Sequence record: NC_041871.1 | DNA from: Escherichia phage Murica | DNA: 64,000 nucleotides | Strand: one strand, 5' to 3' | Shown: one piece after another, positions 1 to 6,325 of the stretch | Numbering within the stretch: position 1 is the first letter of the stretch | Layout: each line of letters starts with the position of its first letter | Position numbers and translations under genes: made by a program | Notes under the pieces: model-generated | Told to the model about the DNA's origin: nothing | What the model saw: the letters and a program-made list of their open reading frames with translations, nothing else | Database searches by the model: none

Positions 1-41
1 ATACAAACCCTTATAGTACAGATATTTAAGTTTTTACTGGT

Positions 42-392
42 CTAACCAGTTGTTGACATTCGAATAACTTCTTCTGGTGGCAAAACTTTGGAAAATGTGC
101 ATCTTTTACCTCTCCCTTGTGTGGATGTTTCAACCACTCCTGCACATTCTAAAGTTTTAACGCACGCTGCTGCTTTTGTTTTCTTTATCCCAACATCTGC
201 TGCAATTTTCCTTGTGCTTGGTGTGAAGCGGGAATTTCCTCCAAGCTTATACCAGTTGTGCAGGTAGCAGTATACAATCTTGTCATACAAGTCAAGAACA
301 ACAACCTCCCCAGTTGTGTCATTCAAAACTTTTGACATAGATAGTATTTCAAGGGGGACTTTAAGATATAGCAGCTTATCCCCATCTTTCAT
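42..392 (-). CDS. hypothetical protein
   Basis: 116-aa ORF co-directional with the downstream kinase/phosphatase genes; no recognisable motif. Confidence 0.4.
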   Translation of the reverse strand: MKDGDKLLYLKVPLEILSMSKVLNDTTGEVVVLDLYDKIVYCYLHNWYKLGGNSRFTPSTRKIAADVGIKKTKAAACVKTLECAGVVETSTQGRGKRCTFSKVLPPEEVIRMSTTG

Positions 393-439
393 ATCTCCTG
401 ATTCTCCTTGTGTGGCAATTTTCTTTAAAATAGCAGGGA

Positions 440-994
440 TTACTCCCTGCTGTCAATATCAAAACTCATTGCAATACGGTATGCCTCTTCTAATGGTAAG
501 AGTCTCCCCCACACATCCCAACCGACATCAAGCTGCCTGCCAAACAACTGTTGTGTGGTTCCGTGAGCATGACCGAACAGTTGGACTGATCCGTGAGGCT
601 TTCTGTTCCACTTTGCAAACTGGTAATGGCTCATACAGATCAAATTCTTGTTGTGGCGAAGCTCGTAATAATCTACAACCTCATGACCGAACTCTTTCAT
701 AATTCTGACAGTCGTCCTTGTGTCATGGTTGCCACGAACAAGAATAATATGTCCGTTCAACATATTTAGAATATCTGGAAGTAAGTTGTTGATATTCTTA
801 TCATTAGTGCACGCAATATCTCCCAGGTGGAACACAGTGTCTGCAGGTGACACAACGGAGTTCCACTCGGTGATGATTCCCGCATTCATACTGTCAAGAT
901 TGTGATCATATTGAGATCTGTGTTTTTGACATGAATCAAACTCCATGACCCGCTGGTGGAGAAAGTGCGTATCGCTTGTTACAAAGTATTTCAT
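440..994 (-). CDS. metallophosphoesterase (calcineurin/lambda-phosphatase-like)
   Basis: Ordered motifs SDTHF, HLGDIA, RGNHDT, GHAHG; start placed at in-frame ATG 992-994 (MKYF), a few nt after the kinase stop, instead of ORF-track start 1099. Confidence 0.8.
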   Translation of the reverse strand: MKYFVTSDTHFLHQRVMEFDSCQKHRSQYDHNLDSMNAGIITEWNSVVSPADTVFHLGDIACTNDKNINNLLPDILNMLNGHIILVRGNHDTRTTVRIMKEFGHEVVDYYELRHNKNLICMSHYQFAKWNRKPHGSVQLFGHAHGTTQQLFGRQLDVGWDVWGRLLPLEEAYRIAMSFDIDSRE

Positions 995-1001
995 ACATTC
1001 C

Positions 1002-1412
1002 TCATTTAAGTTTAATGCAGTTTTTAAGCTGGCGTTCCATACGATCCACAACCTTGTCTGGAACATCATGAATGCTTTTATTACCGTGGCGGTTTTCAAC
1101 CACGATTACGGTATAACTATACCCATGACTGATTGCCATGTCAACATATTCCTGCACATGTTTTTCTTTTGTAAACGTATTACTTACCACGATACGGTCG
1201 TATCCCATACGCATCATATCTTCTACGTTATCTTTGCACCATTTTGCTGCGAGTGTTACTTTACTTGCATCCCAGTTGTAATTGCCGTCATCGTCATACC
1301 AAAACATGTCATTCTCAAAATGTGGATACAGACCTTCTAAAGATAGCGCATTTGCCAGTGTTGATTTGCCAGACCCTGGCAGACCACGCACGATATATAG
1401 CATTTTAGACAT
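1002..1412 (-). CDS. P-loop kinase (polynucleotide-kinase-like)
   Basis: Walker A GLPGSGKST near the N-terminus; start ATG 1410-1412 preceded by GGAGG; ORF-track start 1469 lacks an RBS. Confidence 0.65.
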   Translation of the reverse strand: MSKMLYIVRGLPGSGKSTLANALSLEGLYPHFENDMFWYDDDGNYNWDASKVTLAAKWCKDNVEDMMRMGYDRIVVSNTFTKEKHVQEYVDMAISHGYSYTVIVVENRHGNKSIHDVPDKVVDRMERQLKNCIKLK

Positions 1413-1440
1413 AGCAATCCTCCGTTTTAATTTTAATGAT

Positions 1441-1469
1441 AGTATACCTAACTGTTTTGTTAATTTCAA
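1441..1469 (-). promoter_or_regulatory. sigma70-type promoter TTGAAA-17-TATACT for the kinase/phosphatase operon
   Basis: -35 and -10 hexamers with 17-nt spacer read on the minus strand, about 30 nt upstream of the kinase start; divergent from the RNA ligase gene. Confidence 0.55.
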
Positions 1470-1512
1470 GTGTTGACACTAGGTTATTTGTGTGGCAGGA
1501 TAGACTGACAAA

Positions 1513-2448
1513 ATGACAAATGAGGAACGTATGATGAAGTATTTTAATGCAGATGACCTAGTAGACAAAGGTCTTGTAACCAGTCGGTATTATCCAGATC
1601 TTGGATTAAAGATCTATAAATATGCCAGAAAAGTATTCTACAACGATCTGTGGCATTTGTCTCCGCGTTTACTGGAGTGCCGAGGTATTGTTGTTGGCAA
1701 TGAGGGGAATGTTGTGGCATGGCCTTTCACAAAAGTATTCAACTTAGGAGAAAACTCCACCAACCTACCGGACAGTAAACTTGTTACTGCGGTAGAGAAA
1801 AAGAACGGATTCCTCGGTGTGGTATCATCTCATAAAGGTGAACTATTGTTCTCAACAACCGGGTCTCTTGATTCCCCATATTGTAACCTCGCAAAAGAAA
1901 CCATCAGGGAGCAATGTGGTAATTTAGATCTTATCAAGAAGGTTATGGGCAATGAAAACATGACATTCATGTTTGAAATTTGCCACCCTTCAGATCCGCA
2001 TATTGTTCAGGAAGATCATGGCGCATATTTGATAGGTTGCAGATATAATGATTCTGGAATAATGCTACCAGAAGCAGCTTTAGATGGGATTGCCAAATAC
2101 CTTGGTGCAAAACGTCCTCACACTGTGCGTGAAATTCCGTTCAGCTATGCAAAAGAATTAGCTGCAGAAACAAGAGGTGAAGGGTATATGATTCGTAAGC
2201 CTTACTACCCTTATGATCTGCAGCTGAAGATCAAGTCTCCATACTATCTGGCACGGAAGGCAGTAATGAGGGGTAAAGCTTGGAAGATTTGGGATGATGA
2301 TATCTTTAAACGTGTTGACGAAGAGTTTTACGGTATGGTAAAATTTATTCGTAGCAACTATACAGAAGATGTGTGGAATTGCTTATTAGAGCAGGAGCGT
2401 CGTGAGATACTGGACTACTATTTCCACAACGAGGACTATATGCAATGA
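1513..2448 (+). CDS. RNA ligase, Rnl1 (T4 RnlA-like) family
   Basis: Blocks LECRGIVV and KVFNLGEN resemble T4 RnlA as recalled from memory; candidate motif I VEKKNGF (KxNG); alternative start ATG 1531 has a GAGGA RBS. Confidence 0.65.
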   Translation: MTNEERMMKYFNADDLVDKGLVTSRYYPDLGLKIYKYARKVFYNDLWHLSPRLLECRGIVVGNEGNVVAWPFTKVFNLGENSTNLPDSKLVTAVEKKNGFLGVVSSHKGELLFSTTGSLDSPYCNLAKETIREQCGNLDLIKKVMGNENMTFMFEICHPSDPHIVQEDHGAYLIGCRYNDSGIMLPEAALDGIAKYLGAKRPHTVREIPFSYAKELAAETRGEGYMIRKPYYPYDLQLKIKSPYYLARKAVMRGKAWKIWDDDIFKRVDEEFYGMVKFIRSNYTEDVWNCLLEQERREILDYYFHNEDYMQ

Positions 2449-2795
2449 AGAAGTGGATTGTGTGGCTGGATGATTTGAGAGATCCGTCAAATTATGGACT
2501 CCCAGACGCTATTTGGCTGAAGAATTCCTCAGAGTTTATGGATTTTATTAACGATAAGGGAAAGCTCTACAGACGCGTTTCTGAGTGGCATATGGACAAC
2601 GACCTAGGAGAAGTATTCGAAGGATACGATTGCCTATCCATGTTGGAGGAAAAATTTGTATTCGGTAAGCCTCCAGTGATTGACAACGTGAAGATTTTCG
2701 TACATACTTCTAATCCATCGGCAGCTCGTAAATTTATGCTTGCTGCTGACTCATTCAAGAAGTTTGGAATAGAGATTAAACAAAACATCTACTGA
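2445..2795 (+). CDS. hypothetical protein
   Basis: 116-aa ORF overlapping the ligase stop (ATGA); hydrophobic N-terminal strand WIVWLDD; family not identified. Confidence 0.5.
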   Translation: MKKWIVWLDDLRDPSNYGLPDAIWLKNSSEFMDFINDKGKLYRRVSEWHMDNDLGEVFEGYDCLSMLEEKFVFGKPPVIDNVKIFVHTSNPSAARKFMLAADSFKKFGIEIKQNIY

Positions 2796-2803
2796 GGACA
2801 CTT

Positions 2804-3565
2804 ATGCGACGACTGATTATTATCTCCGGTGCTGGTTTGAGCGCTGAATCTGGTATTCCCACTTTCCGATCTGGTAGCACTGCAATGTGGGAGAATTTCA
2901 GCATCGATGAGGTGTGCAACATCCACACCTTTGCCAAGAACTACTATAAGGTGCATGACTTTTACAATGCACGTCGTGTAGCTCTGGGCAGTGTTGATCC
3001 TAACCTTGCACATCTTCGGATCGCTGAGTGGTATTCCCGCTGGTCTGGTCGTGTGATCAACCTTACCACCAATGTAGATGATTTGCTGGAGCGTGCTGGT
3101 GTAAAACATGAAGATATTTTACATGTCCACGGGTATTTGCCTGAAATCACCTACGAAGATGCTGAAGGTAACGATGTAATTAAAAATATCGGATACACGG
3201 AGGTAGATACAGGCAAGTATACCTGGGTTAAGCCTAATGTAGTGTTCTTCGGTGAGGTTGCTCCTAAGTATACAGACATGTATGACCTGTTGACATCTCT
3301 CACAAGCAATGATATGGTGATCCTGGTGGGTTGTTCTAACACAGTTATTAATTTTAACTGGGAATTGTTTCCTGCTACTTGTAAAGGCACAAAACTGCTG
3401 ATTGTAAACAAGTATGACTCGCAGAGTGCAGATGGAAGTGGCATTTCACGTAGCGACCTTTATCAATATGAGGATCGCGGGATCCCTGTATGGTTTAACG
3501 GTGCTGTTGACGCTTTCTCTGATAAAGCATTTATTGAAACTGTAGAAAACTTTATGGAACTTTAA
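2804..3565 (+). CDS. Sir2-family NAD-dependent deacylase/ADP-ribosyltransferase (sirtuin)
   Basis: Sirtuin motifs GAGLSAESGIPTFR, TTNVDDL..HVHG (catalytic His), VFFGE, VGCS, N-x-D; no CxxC zinc module seen. Confidence 0.8.
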   Translation: MRRLIIISGAGLSAESGIPTFRSGSTAMWENFSIDEVCNIHTFAKNYYKVHDFYNARRVALGSVDPNLAHLRIAEWYSRWSGRVINLTTNVDDLLERAGVKHEDILHVHGYLPEITYEDAEGNDVIKNIGYTEVDTGKYTWVKPNVVFFGEVAPKYTDMYDLLTSLTSNDMVILVGCSNTVINFNWELFPATCKGTKLLIVNKYDSQSADGSGISRSDLYQYEDRGIPVWFNGAVDAFSDKAFIETVENFMEL

Positions 3566-3578
3566 AAGGAGACCTTTA

Positions 3579-4292
3579 ATGCTGAATACTAAACTGATCG
3601 ACAACCTGGAAAAACTGTCTCAGCCTGAAAACTACCTTTGGTCTGCCAACTGGGTGGAAAACTGGAACCGTGTGGCAGCTAAAGTGAAAAAATCATACAC
3701 ACCATTCGAATTACAGCTTAGCTTCATTGAGGAAGAGTTCAATGAGGTTTTGGAAGAGCTGGAGAAAGGTGATGGTGGAGATCACCTGTTAAAAGAGGCC
3801 TGCGATCTTCACGTTGTCACAAGTTATGCCGCCTATCTTGTTAATGACAATCACGAAAAGTGGTCAAACCTGTTTGATAATCCACGAGGTCTTAAGTTCA
3901 AGATCGGTGAGTTCTATGATACACTGATCGCTGCGAAAAACACATCCAAGCAAAGAGCGTCAGCTTACCGCTTAGCGGAGTTGTCAACAGCTTTGCTGTT
4001 CCAGCTTCGCGGCGATGTGTGTGGGATGATGCGGAAGGTTCTCAAATCTAATGACAGTAAGTTTGCACGGATCAACCATCTACGGCATTCACACGGTGCC
4101 AGTGCAGATATGCCTGCTGAACAACTCATCGAGTTGGAGATTAAAGATCTTGAGCGTCGTTTTGGTGGTCGCTACGAAGGTTTTGTTGCTAAGGAAGAGT
4201 TCTACAACGGTAATAAAGTTATCATATTCCTTGACAGTAAAGGTAAGATCATGAAGCCTTCGAGCTTCAAGGATGTAACAGAGTATATTTGA
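3579..4292 (+). CDS. MazG-like nucleotide pyrophosphohydrolase domain protein
   Basis: N-terminal EExxE...ExxD pattern (FIEEEFNEVLEEL ... KEACD) typical of MazG/HisE all-alpha NTP pyrophosphatases; C-terminal half unassigned. Confidence 0.45.
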   Translation: MLNTKLIDNLEKLSQPENYLWSANWVENWNRVAAKVKKSYTPFELQLSFIEEEFNEVLEELEKGDGGDHLLKEACDLHVVTSYAAYLVNDNHEKWSNLFDNPRGLKFKIGEFYDTLIAAKNTSKQRASAYRLAELSTALLFQLRGDVCGMMRKVLKSNDSKFARINHLRHSHGASADMPAEQLIELEIKDLERRFGGRYEGFVAKEEFYNGNKVIIFLDSKGKIMKPSSFKDVTEYI

Positions 4293-4298
4293 CAACAT

Positions 4299-4327
4299 AG
4301 CCGGGTAATCCCGGCTTTACTTATTAT
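4299..4327 (+). terminator. intrinsic terminator
   Basis: Hairpin AGCCGGG-taat-CCCGGCT followed by TTTACTTATTAT directly after the 3579-4292 stop. Confidence 0.6.
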
Positions 4328-4354
4328 GGAAAGTATGCAGCGAGGTAGTTAGTT

Positions 4355-4663
4355 ATGTACAAGCATTCCAGAGATCTTGAAAAAGATGCTGTGTTTGGCG
4401 ACCAGATGAAGGAGCTGATCAAACTTATAGGTAGAATGGAAGATAAGTTTGACACTAAAATCTACATCGATAGCAAGATCTTCAACCACAAAATATGGAC
4501 AAATGTGTGTGTTGGGCTACATGGTGATAAAGATATTGTAAATTTGGTTGTAATAAAGTTCATAGTGTGGCAGAATAAGACTATACGTTATTCCGATCCA
4601 CACTTACTTGTTTATCCTATAAAAGACCTACTACAGAAGGAGGACTGCAATGCCGTTATTTAA
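4355..4663 (+). CDS. hypothetical protein
   Basis: 102-aa ORF in co-directional array. Confidence 0.4.
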   Translation: MYKHSRDLEKDAVFGDQMKELIKLIGRMEDKFDTKIYIDSKIFNHKIWTNVCVGLHGDKDIVNLVVIKFIVWQNKTIRYSDPHLLVYPIKDLLQKEDCNAVI

Positions 4664-4919
4664 TCTTGCTAAACCTGTAGAAGCCCACCAGTTTGACGGA
4701 AGCTCTTCATCAGTATCTGATCTGCAACGGTGGATTGATACAGGTGTGTTTACATCGTCACCTGTTCGGACCAGAGATCTTCGTCGCATGTGTGAGCTTG
4801 TCGAGCCTTTTGGTAACCTTGTCTTGTACCAGGGAGATTGGCTAGTTGACTTTATGGGAGACTGGTTGGTAATGAGTAAAGAAGAGATGTTTAAAATTTT
4901 TAAGGAAGAGGCCGAGTAA
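4650..4919 (+). CDS. hypothetical protein
   Basis: 89-aa ORF; start overlaps the upstream gene end, stop overlaps the ligase start. Confidence 0.4.
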   Translation: MPLFNLAKPVEAHQFDGSSSSVSDLQRWIDTGVFTSSPVRTRDLRRMCELVEPFGNLVLYQGDWLVDFMGDWLVMSKEEMFKIFKEEAE

Positions 4920-6202
4920 TGCATCAAATCAAAACAACACTGTACGCACTGAACAAAGATGGCAGCTACCAACAGTGGAAAGTATTCACTGATGGCGAAA
5001 AGGTTATCGTAGAGTTTGGCAAGCTTGACGGTAAATTGCAGTACAAAGAGACGGTATGCACACCTAAGAACGTAGGTCGTGCCAATGAGACTACAGCTGA
5101 GCAACAGGCCGAGCTTGAGGCTATCAGCAAGTGGGAAAAACAAGTCCGTCTGGGGTATGTTGAAAACATGGAAGATTGCGAGCAGGGTGTTGACCTTTTA
5201 CCCATGCTGGTGCATGACTACCTGAAGCGTGGCAAGGCACTTAAATTACCTTGCTGGATCTTGCGTAAGTTAGATGGCCTTCGTCTGCTTGTTGTTTTCC
5301 AAAATGGTGAGCCTAAATTTATTTCCCGTGGTAATAAGTCCTACCCTATTCAAGGAAAGCTTTTAGAGCAACTTCGTTCTTTCCATTCTACCACTGGGAT
5401 TAAACAACTTGATGGGGAACTATACATTCATGGTCTTCCTTTGCAGAAAATAGTGTCTCTTGCTAAACGGTGGCGCACACAGGAAGAGATTCAGGCCGAG
5501 ATCGATAAAGACTATGAGGCAGATAAAAAACGCCGTCATGCCGCAATTAAGGCAGGCTTATCAACATACAAAAACTTCAACAAGGTAGATATTCCTGTCG
5601 ATGTTGAGCCTGTTCGTGATGATTTGCGTTACGGTGGGTACTGTAGCTACGATCTGGAGTATCACATTTTTGATATTCCTAGCGACAAGGTGTGGTGGGA
5701 TCCAGAAACAGAGTCTGGACGCTGCAAGGATCTTATGGATGCAGAGGATACCGTTACCACTCTGATGCTTGATCATATCAAGGTTGTTGACGCAGAGCTT
5801 GCGTACACAGTTGATCATTGCGAAGAATCTGTTGGTATATTCATGTCCGAAGGATATGAAGGTACTATCATGCGTAATTTCTGCGGTAAATACGAGTACG
5901 GTCAGCGAACATCTGAAGCATTGAAATGGAAAAAGTTCAACGACGCAGAGGTGAAAGTTATTGACGTTGAGAAAGATAAGAATGATGAAGGTGTTCTTAT
6001 CTGTGTTGACAAGGAAGGTGTTGTTGTTAAAATGAAGATGAAAGGCACGCACGAGGAGCGTAGCTATGACAGGATGCAGGAAATGATCGGCAAGTTTGTC
6101 ACCTTCAAATACCAAGCAAGGACAGAAGACAACAACTACCAATTCCCTGTCGGTATCTGCGTCCGAAATGTTAACCCAGACACTTGGGAGGTGCTTGAAT
6201 GA
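4919..6202 (+). CDS. DNA ligase
   Basis: Nucleotidyltransferase motif I KLDGLR with the adenylated Lys near residue 118; motif IV EGYEGTIMR and motif V LKWKK; cofactor not resolved. Confidence 0.8.
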   Translation: MHQIKTTLYALNKDGSYQQWKVFTDGEKVIVEFGKLDGKLQYKETVCTPKNVGRANETTAEQQAELEAISKWEKQVRLGYVENMEDCEQGVDLLPMLVHDYLKRGKALKLPCWILRKLDGLRLLVVFQNGEPKFISRGNKSYPIQGKLLEQLRSFHSTTGIKQLDGELYIHGLPLQKIVSLAKRWRTQEEIQAEIDKDYEADKKRRHAAIKAGLSTYKNFNKVDIPVDVEPVRDDLRYGGYCSYDLEYHIFDIPSDKVWWDPETESGRCKDLMDAEDTVTTLMLDHIKVVDAELAYTVDHCEESVGIFMSEGYEGTIMRNFCGKYEYGQRTSEALKWKKFNDAEVKVIDVEKDKNDEGVLICVDKEGVVVKMKMKGTHEERSYDRMQEMIGKFVTFKYQARTEDNNYQFPVGICVRNVNPDTWEVLE

Positions 6203-6325
6203 TGTAGGAAGGTTCAGTAGGTAACGGTAGCCAATTGAATGATGGTTTTCAATCGGCACATACATAACCACACTGTGTAGTGTTGTTGATCGTGTTAGTT
6301 ATGAGTAAACTGGAGAGTATGAAAA

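Follow-up and report, generated by a model that had tools for sequence, protein, structure and literature searches.

Gene content and organisation of the region

Near the left end of a 64,000-nucleotide stretch of DNA from Escherichia phage Murica (record NC_041871.1; the whole stretch is hereafter called the window) lie three neighbouring genes that encode a P-loop kinase, a metallophosphoesterase and an Rnl1-family RNA ligase (Table 1). Bacteria commonly defend themselves against phages by cleaving tRNA, and phages classically respond with RNA repair; to our knowledge, phage RNA repair has been studied experimentally almost solely in T4. An original prediction for this DNA had proposed that the three genes form a repair module made of a 5'-kinase, a separate phosphoesterase and an Rnl1-type ligase. 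This central claim is supported by the folds, the catalytic residues, the linkage and the gene fusions that we describe here.

The first 6.3 kb of the window are 99.9% identical to Escherichia phage vB_EcoM-Pr121LW (Pr121LW), the best match, whose taxonomy line reads Vequintavirinae, genus Vequintavirus. Dozens of further Vequintavirus (rV5-like) coliphages, some of them from the BASEL collection, match the same 6.3 kb with 95–98% identity. The type species of the genus is phage V5.

The three open reading frames (ORFs) underlying the original prediction, opened at 440–1099 (-), 1002–1469 (-) and 1513–2448 (+), were recovered at matching coordinates, and their Pfam and PHROG families agree with the roles proposed. 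Their presence is therefore not in doubt, but their starts had been placed too far upstream, as judged from Shine-Dalgarno motifs, family alignments and the BASEL annotation, and the true starts probably lie inside the ORFs. For the phosphoesterase, whose ORF opens at 1099, the ATG at 994 has a GAGGAA Shine-Dalgarno motif upstream, and the family alignment starts there. The kinase ORF extends to 1469, and its ATG at 1412 is preceded by the Shine-Dalgarno motif GGAGGA. Upstream of the two ligase ATGs, at 1531 and 1534, lies GAGGAA (1522–1527), and the consensus of the ligase family starts at this point. Public start calls conflict: in Pr121LW the phosphoesterase is 660 bp long, overlapping the kinase by 98 nt, and the ligase is called from 1513, whereas the BASEL records give 555 bp for the phosphoesterase and 918 bp for the ligase. 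The Shine-Dalgarno motifs and family alignments favour the shorter forms.

With the revised starts, the kinase stop (1002) and the phosphoesterase start (994) are only 7 nt apart, so co-transcription of the two genes is plausible. The pair is transcribed away from the ligase, across a divergent intergenic region. In a promoter scan of this spacer, the minus strand showed a single sigma-70-like site, which faces the kinase (1469->1441, TTGAAA-17-TATACT, 10/12 matches), and the plus strand only a TTGACA at 1473–1478 that lacks a good -10 hexamer. Across the divergent region, promoter-like sites were not more frequent than in shuffled sequence (17 versus 14.4 +/- 4.1). The divergent gene arrangement itself is real, and it is this arrangement that suggests the divergent promoter of the original prediction.

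Table 1. Features of the region. Positions refer to the window, except for the tRNA cluster, which is given in the coordinates of two loci from related phages
Feature	Position	Strand	Evidence
Stand-alone binuclear metallophosphoesterase, 184 amino acids (aa), predicted 2',3'-cyclic-phosphate / 3'-phosphate healing enzyme	440..994	-	Pfam, PHROG 547, motifs
Stand-alone P-loop polynucleotide 5'-OH kinase (predicted), 136 aa, without phosphatase domain	1002..1412	-	AAA_33, PHROG, AlphaFold2 (AF2) fold
Divergent intergenic region, ~118 bp, between the kinase-phosphoesterase pair and the ligase operon	1413..1530	.	Promoter scan
Rnl1-family ATP-dependent RNA ligase (predicted), ~305 aa	1531..2448 (ATG 1531 or 1534; ORF opens 1513)	+	Pfam, profile, AF2
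cREC protein, 116 aa, receiver-like, predicted cyclic-phosphate processing	2445..2795	+	Pfam PF20274 cREC_REC, E 2e-14
Sirtuin, 253 aa, CobB / class III type	2804..3565	+	Pfam SIR2, E 6.9e-28
MazG-like all-alpha NTP pyrophosphohydrolase-like protein, 237 aa	3579..4292	+	PHROG 671, E 1.5e-21
Terminator-like GC-rich hairpin	4299..4316	+	7-bp stem, 6 GC pairs, then T-rich tail; pattern match
ATP-dependent DNA ligase (DNA_ligase_A_M + OB_2)	4919-6202	+	Pfam; 0.6 kb past the terminator-like hairpin
tRNA cluster in relatives	L001 584-1524; L002 422-1233 (beyond window position 1)

Families, folds and catalytic residues of the three proteins

Profile searches of all three proteins, which had been proposed as a check of the original prediction, confirmed the kinase, phosphoesterase and ligase families. 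The kinase matched Pfam AAA_33 (E 1.7e-10) and two PHROG families, an ATPase (1.8e-58) and a polynucleotide kinase (7.6e-10). It has at least 7,989 relatives in a large protein database; among the 120 listed, nearly all are stand-alone proteins of ~130 aa. In an alignment of 51 kinases, the Walker A motif, D35, N78-T79 and E106-N107-R108-H109 are invariant. The P-loop (G10–T18) reads GLPGSGKST, and the profile alignment matches D35 to D35 of T4, the catalytic base of the T4 enzyme.

The AF2 model of the kinase is a compact 136-aa fold with a predicted local distance difference test score (pLDDT) of 90.7. Its structural matches, expressed as template modelling (TM) scores, were Clostridium thermocellum Pnk (CthPnk, 0.77–0.78), T4 Pnk (0.72–0.77) and the tRNA kinase PSTK (0.70–0.73), with mammalian PNKP and bacterial Pnkp1 likewise among the best. 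A single-sequence phmmer search against the Protein Data Bank (PDB) returned only P-loop noise, while the family profile retrieved Pnkp1 (E 2.3e-5) and T4 Pnk (5.6e-5), together with PSTK and CthPnk. By fold and profile, the protein is thus polynucleotide-kinase-like, in keeping with the end-healing kinase originally proposed. It is of the T4 Pnk / CthPnk type, with a P-loop and a general-base aspartate and without a nucleoside monophosphate (NMP)-binding or LID insert, and it consists of the kinase domain alone, not of the kinase plus HAD 3'-phosphatase architecture of T4 Pnkp. The possibility that it is a dNMP/NMP kinase, which would have spoken against a repair module, did not find computational support, as UMP-CMP and adenylate kinases reached TM scores of only 0.49–0.61. 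We also observed weak PADLOC matches of the kinase to P-loop modules of CARF/Csx3 ring-nuclease-type fusions (CARF4--CARF_PDDEXK_AAA, E 5e-6; Csx3-AAA, 5e-3); small kinases related to this one may also occur in CRISPR-associated signalling contexts.

The phosphoesterase belongs to the calcineurin-like metallophosphoesterase superfamily. It exceeded the gathering thresholds of the Pfam families PF00149 (Metallophos; E 1e-5, 26.4 versus 21.5 bits) and PF12850 (Metallophos_2; 3e-6, 27.8 versus 27) and matched PHROG 547 with an E-value of 1.9e-52. Five metallophosphoesterase motifs, D8xH10, G58D59, G88N89H90, H123 and G141H142xH144, are invariant in 32 homologues, and because all five are conserved the protein is very likely an active binuclear hydrolase. 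The Pfam matches and these motifs bear out the view that the phosphatase is a separate metallophosphoesterase and not a fused HAD domain of the T4 Pnkp kind. A search of a large database retrieved only 84 related proteins, all of them stand-alone (149–239 aa) and none fused to another domain.

The more specific label given to this enzyme, lambda-phosphatase-type, holds at the superfamily level only. Its motifs (SDTHF, LGDIAC and GNHD) differ from the lambda/PPP signature (GDxHG, GDxxDRG and GNHE), and in a profile search of the PDB at E <= 1 the family matched neither lambda phosphatase nor the CthPnkp phosphatase. Vibrio phage Thalassa encodes a NinI/lambda-type phosphatase besides its own copy of the phosphoesterase family of the window, and hhalign gave the comparison with this NinI/lambda-type protein a probability of 0.3% (E 0.18). 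The closest solved relative is Aquifex aeolicus aq_1665 (PDB 1XM7; E 4.7e-11 in a single-sequence search, 2.9e-24 when the family profile was used), in an alignment that spans motifs I–IV and is poor in the C-terminal third. This protein is a structural-genomics metallophosphoesterase without an assigned function or a known RNA-repair context. The match to PdeM, a ligase-associated DNA-damage endonuclease, was weak (E 2.5e-4, 20.5 bits versus a cut-off of 150).

The ligase matched Pfam PF09511 (RNA_lig_T4_1; E 9.3e-15, 55.5 bits versus a gathering threshold of 28.3) and the PHROG family 'RNA ligase and tail fiber protein attachment catalyst' (E 1.2e-65), and ~1,590 relatives were found. A single-sequence phmmer search against the PDB gave no matches, while a profile of 50 relatives aligned with residues 50–249 of T4 Rnl1 (2C5U; E 3.2e-13). 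Counting residues from the ORF start at 1513, the positions R57, K74, F76, K96, G99, E155, E223, G224, K239 and K241 are invariant in the 50 homologues and correspond to T4 R54, K75, F77, K99, G102, E159, E227, G228, K240 and K242, the residues essential in Rnl1. Motifs I (K96/G99), III (E155), IV (E223/G224) and V (K239/K241) are all matched to those of T4, so that the T4 RnlA-like blocks noticed originally are indeed present, and K96 is the predicted adenylylation site. In a fold search with the AF2 model (pLDDT 91.8), the top matches were fungal Trl1 ligase domains, archaeal Rnl3 and T4 Rnl1 (E ~1e-11, TM ~0.6), all of them RNA ligases. We considered whether the protein could be an orthologue of T4 RnlA and rejected this on the basis of the score against the T4 RnlA equivalog (NCBIfam TIGR02308, 37.5 versus 242 bits) and the unmatched C-terminal domain.

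Linkage of the three genes across phages

Relatives of the ligase were found in 818 phage records from many host genera, among them Escherichia, Pseudomonas, Vibrio, Klebsiella, Acinetobacter and Streptomyces. We assessed gene linkage, using tblastn and iterative hidden Markov model (HMM) searches over all ORFs, in 84 loci with a ligase relative (28–90% identity), namely four distant annotated phages and 80 IMG/VR loci. A kinase homologue was present in 78 of the 84 loci, within 2.5 kb of the ligase in 74 of them, and a phosphoesterase homologue in 65, within 2.5 kb in 63; several of the loci scored as lacking a partner are contigs that end beside the ligase. The genes occur in at least five orders, which include phosphoesterase-ligase-kinase, kinase-ligase-phosphoesterase, ligase-kinase-phosphoesterase and ligase-phosphoesterase-kinase, while the divergent arrangement of the window is found in the rV5 group only. 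Since the linkage survives rearrangement in dozens of diverged phage loci, the association of the trio is far beyond chance, and this conserved linkage is the strongest evidence for a functional link between the three proteins.

In 11–12 loci (9 distinct sequences), the kinase and the ligase form one uninterrupted ORF of ~431 aa with AAA_33 and RNA_lig_T4_1 domains. An apparent fusion of phosphoesterase and ligase in another locus (L039) was discarded, as a stop codon separates the two genes, which are merely adjacent.

Two further arrangements are cases of non-orthologous displacement that point to the same association with RNA ligases. Streptomyces phage Genie2 carries a ligase relative beside a T4-type Pnkp (AAA_33 + HAD_PNKP), near tRNA genes. 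On freshwater phage-like contigs, kinases ~50% identical to that of the window are directly followed by a Metallophos gene and, 1.8 kb downstream, by an RNA ligase of a different family (PF09414). These displacement cases suggest that the kinase-metallophosphoesterase pair acts as an end-healing dyad for RNA ligases.

In Pseudomonas phage PAK_P1 (L004 5326-8164) and Vibrio phage Thalassa (L005 6746-8900), the trio adjoins genes of NAD+ salvage, which encode ribose-phosphate pyrophosphokinase and nicotinamide phosphoribosyltransferase (NAMPT). This is a second link to NAD+, independent of the sirtuin encoded downstream of the ligase in the window.

The ligase operon and neighbouring features

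The original prediction ended the module at 2448. The trio itself stands, but this boundary does not, because the genes for cREC, a sirtuin (Sir2) and a MazG-like protein follow in the ligase operon up to 4292. The cREC ATG overlaps the ligase stop codon (ATGA at 2445–2448), the sirtuin gene starts 8 nt past the cREC stop, and the MazG-like gene, the last of the operon, starts 13 nt past the Sir2 stop behind an AAGGAG Shine-Dalgarno motif. Given this overlap, these short gaps and the terminal hairpin, ligase-cREC-Sir2-MazG looks like one transcription unit (1531–4292).

Ten cREC positions are invariant: D9, D10, D51, N52, D53, H87, S89, N90, P91 and K96; of these, D9, D10, D51, D53, S89 and K96 are of the receiver type. 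The nearest solved relative of the sirtuin is Escherichia coli CobB (1S5P; E 3.2e-21). The catalytic HG and the NAD-binding motifs are intact in the phage protein, and the zinc-ribbon cysteines of CobB are absent in the alignment. The MazG-like protein had no Pfam match. PADLOC returned no defence-type match for Sir2, MazG, cREC, the phosphoesterase or the ligase. These three downstream genes accompany the ligase in only ~11–14 of the 84 loci, all of them Vequintavirinae- or Stephanstirmvirinae-like.

Two observations concern the distribution of cREC. In Escherichia phage ESCO5, a homologue 55% identical to that of the window (L003 2603-2947) sits upstream of the phosphoesterase and not behind the ligase; its label, 'putative RNA ligase and tail attachment protein', is an apparent mis-annotation. 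In Thalassa, a 105-aa ORF between ligase and kinase (L005 4923-5240), without a Pfam match, takes the position that cREC has in rV5-type phages; an iterative search did not detect it as a cREC.

No tRNA genes were found within the window, and Rfam at gathering thresholds gave zero matches across its whole length. In relatives of the phage, 5–6 phage tRNA genes (Pro, Met/Ile, Thr, Lys, Tyr and Arg) are located ~2.5–3.4 kb past the left end of the window.

Relationship to known RNA-repair systems

The module was already known as a prediction, and the novelty that the original prediction implied does not hold. The genes bear the labels 'polynucleotide kinase', 'putative phosphoresterase' and 'RNA ligase' in the BASEL record of phage EmilHeitz. 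Moreover, Iyer, Burroughs, Anantharaman & Aravind (2022; PMC9503650, section 3.7.3) predicted a sirtuin-centred phage RNA-repair neighbourhood, type 2, with Escherichia phage V5 and Proteus phage Mydo as prototypes. Its parts are a sirtuin, a T4-like ligase, cREC, a nucleotide kinase, a protein of the MazG superfamily and, optionally, a calcineurin-like phosphoesterase (PMC9503650). cREC was defined in an earlier paper on jumbo phages by the same group (2021), which also draws attention to calcineurin-like phosphatases in the RNA repair of phages. The window carries the type 2 system, as all six genes lie at 440–4292 and the prototype V5 belongs to the same genus.

What our analysis adds is a different view of its core. 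Section 3.7.3 of PMC9503650 describes the phosphoesterase as 'occasional' and places the sirtuin at the centre, whereas in our 84 loci the ligase is constantly accompanied by the kinase (78) and the phosphoesterase (65), and sirtuin, cREC and MazG occur as additions restricted to certain lineages. The trio, and not the sirtuin, is the widespread core. We also find that kinase-ligase fusions exist and that the kinase-phosphoesterase dyad is paired with Rnl2-type ligases as well; neither is mentioned in that section.

The T4 pathway, in which Pnkp and Rnl1 counter the anticodon nuclease PrrC, has the same three activities that are predicted here. The kinase of the window is homologous to the T4 Pnk kinase domain and the ligase to the nucleotidyltransferase domain of T4 Rnl1, and a phage tRNA gene cluster lies close by in relatives of the window. 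The systems differ in that the phosphatase is a separate metallophosphoesterase here and a HAD domain fused to the kinase in T4. The ligase likewise departs from T4 Rnl1: it has no detectable T4-type C-terminal tRNA-binding domain, has an asparagine for D101 and scores below the RnlA equivalog threshold. The genes are adjacent here, whereas those for T4 Pnkp and Rnl1 are not in one operon.

The bacterial systems Pnkp/Hen1 of C. thermocellum and Pnkp1-Rnl-Hen1 share their domain types with the window: besides a P-loop kinase, they have a metallophosphoesterase of the binuclear kind and a ligase that depends on ATP. In structure, the window kinase is matched best by CthPnk, and in the profile search its best match among polynucleotide kinases is Pnkp1. 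However, bacterial Pnkp is a single trifunctional polypeptide of ~870 aa that is accompanied by Hen1, and the window has three small separate proteins, encoded by three genes. The CthPnkp phosphoesterase is lambda-phosphatase-like and that of the window aq_1665-like, and the ligase of the window differs in being Rnl1-type. No Hen1 methyltransferase is annotated in the stretches of the relatives to which the search was confined and which extend ~4 kb past the aligned 6.3 kb at either end.

There are also parallels with the Trl1 + Tpt1 pathway of fungi and plants. Its ligase belongs to the same Pfam family, and Trl1 domains are among the top fold matches of the phage ligase, whose motif I, KxNG, has the form found in fungal Trl1. 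A polynucleotide kinase, a candidate cyclic phosphodiesterase (cREC) and an NAD+-using enzyme linked to the ligase are present here too. In contrast to Trl1, the functions reside in separate genes, with cREC in place of a 2H enzyme and a sirtuin in place of Tpt1/KptA. Furthermore, the metallophosphoesterase of the window could strip off the phosphate directly, and a 2'-phosphate route would then not be needed.

Proposed function and alternative explanations

We consider it likely that the region encodes a system for RNA end healing and sealing, split over separate genes, of an rV5-like Vequintavirus coliphage. From the observed gene organisation, families, conserved catalytic residues, folds, linkage and gene fusion, we infer which reactions the enzymes catalyse, which RNA they act on and which host nuclease they counter. 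The kinase would move the gamma-phosphate of a nucleoside triphosphate (NTP) onto the 5'-OH of a broken RNA, with K16 of the Walker A motif binding the NTP and D35 as the predicted general base. The metallophosphoesterase would first hydrolyse the 2',3'-cyclic phosphate to a monoester and then hydrolyse this monoester, leaving a 3'-OH; removal of the 2',3'-cyclic phosphate by a metallophosphoesterase is documented for the CthPnkp domain and for lambda phosphatase (PMC2190708). The ligase, adenylylated on K96 (K96-AMP), would then activate the 5'-phosphate and seal the break.

In this scheme the trio would be a self-sufficient, widespread core that works like the T4 Pnkp/Rnl1 pathway. The cREC protein, the zinc-less sirtuin and the MazG-like protein would most likely let the system deal with further end chemistries or by-products, for example 2'-phosphate ends or ADP-ribose derivatives. 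Likely substrates are tRNAs that have been cleaved by anticodon nucleases of the host or by other metal-independent RNases, a suggestion that fits the tRNA gene cluster found in relatives a few kilobases beyond the left end of the window. The module is real and probably important for anti-defence.

Several findings weigh against this interpretation. The nearest solved relative of the phosphoesterase family is aq_1665, which has no known function, and the two metallophosphoesterases with known RNA-end-healing activity are not detectably related to the family. In the ligase, T4 D101 and K119 are replaced by N98 (motif I, KxNG) and T116, the equivalog score does not indicate orthology with T4 RnlA, and the T4 C-terminal tRNA-specificity domain is not detectable: T4 residues beyond 249 are unmatched, and ~60 helical residues follow motif V, compared with a 120-residue domain in T4. 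No phosphoesterase lies near the kinase-ligase fusion in the lineage that carries it, and the trio is therefore not obligatory. The gene for an ATP-dependent DNA ligase is located 2.5 kb downstream of the RNA ligase, and T4-type end-healing enzymes, T4 Pnkp included, act on DNA as well as on RNA. Finally, our literature search found no biochemical or genetic test of rV5-type enzymes.

A different mechanism, proposed by Iyer et al. (2022), would make a eukaryote-like 2'-phosphate route the main pathway in rV5-like phages. Here cREC would open the cyclic phosphate to a 2'-phosphate, the kinase would phosphorylate the 5' end and the ligase would join the two; the sirtuin would then use NAD+ to strip the 2'-phosphate like Tpt1/KptA, and the metallophosphoesterase and/or MazG would clear the ADP-ribose cyclic-phosphate. 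Besides having been published (PMC9503650), this proposal agrees with the translationally coupled or near-contiguous arrangement of ligase, cREC, Sir2 and MazG in one operon. The receiver-type acidic residues are retained in cREC, the NAD-binding and catalytic motifs are intact in the sirtuin, which is not of the defence type, and the ligase has the motif I of Trl1, with Trl1 domains among its top folds. However, the ligase profile matches T4 Rnl1 (E 3e-13) and does not detect Trl1 at E <= 1, no sirtuin is known as an RNA 2'-phosphotransferase, and the activity of cREC is only predicted. The rarity of cREC, Sir2 and MazG, compared with the kinase and the phosphoesterase, among the ligase loci further indicates that the core works without them. 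We therefore regard this route as an unlikely main pathway. It is equally doubtful, in our estimate, that in rV5-like phages the zinc-less sirtuin, instead of Tpt1/KptA, removes the junction 2'-phosphate with NAD+ and that cREC is the cyclic phosphodiesterase. If true, however, this would extend sirtuin catalysis to a new role and give cREC its first assigned function, and it would connect RNA repair in phages with the NAD+ economy, a target of many defence systems.

The kinase and phosphoesterase could instead act, like mammalian PNKP, on DNA ends with 5'-OH and 3'-phosphate groups and heal them for the DNA ligase encoded nearby, with the RNA ligase homologue in another role. Such a function would suit the position of the DNA ligase gene in the same strand cluster, the finding that 44 of the 84 loci have a DNA ligase relative no more than 10 kb from the RNA ligase, the weak PdeM match and the activity of T4 Pnkp on DNA. 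The DNA ligase is nonetheless a less constant partner (52%) than the RNA ligase and lies farther away (1.2–9.8 kb), the fusion partner of the kinase is the RNA ligase, and where the Rnl1-type ligase is missing the kinase-phosphoesterase pair accompanies another RNA ligase family. The PdeM score, too, is far below its cut-off, and we find a DNA-end function very unlikely. Nor do we give much weight to small molecules (nucleotides, NAD+ precursors or cyclic-nucleotide immune signals) as targets of the two enzymes in place of RNA ends. The NAMPT and PRPP synthetase genes beside the trio in PAK_P1 and Thalassa, the Sir2 and MazG genes of the operon, with their hint of NAD or nucleotide chemistry, the existence of cyclic-nucleotide phosphodiesterases among metallophosphoesterases and weak profile matches of the kinase to nicotinamide riboside kinase (E 0.011) and adenylate kinases would all accord with such targets. 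Yet by fold and profile the kinase is closer to polynucleotide kinases than to NMP or nicotinamide riboside kinases, at 136 aa it is too small to hold an NMP-binding or LID domain, in other phages it forms an in-frame fusion with an RNA ligase, and there was no PADLOC or other match to anti-signalling families. Small-molecule targets are accordingly the least probable of these options, and very improbable.

An RNA end-healing and sealing function of the trio would mean that numerous phages of diverse kinds possess a split repair kit, in which a metallophosphoesterase takes the place of the HAD phosphatase and NAD+-linked accessory proteins are added in some lineages. The E. coli K-12 phages of the BASEL collection that carry the module provide tractable material, and work on it could reveal which defence nucleases are countered and what roles cREC and phage sirtuins play.

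Further observations on the window and related records

Eighteen unannotated GenBank records bear the name 'Campylobacter phage' (MG0656xx, host C. jejuni). Their ~97% identity to positions 1–6300 of the window looks like a host mis-assignment or contamination in these records. Within the window, ~21 kb (~26000–47000) contain no ORF of 200 aa or more, and the GC skew flips sign near 37–38 kb; these features point to numerous small genes grouped in one block and to a change in the direction of transcription.

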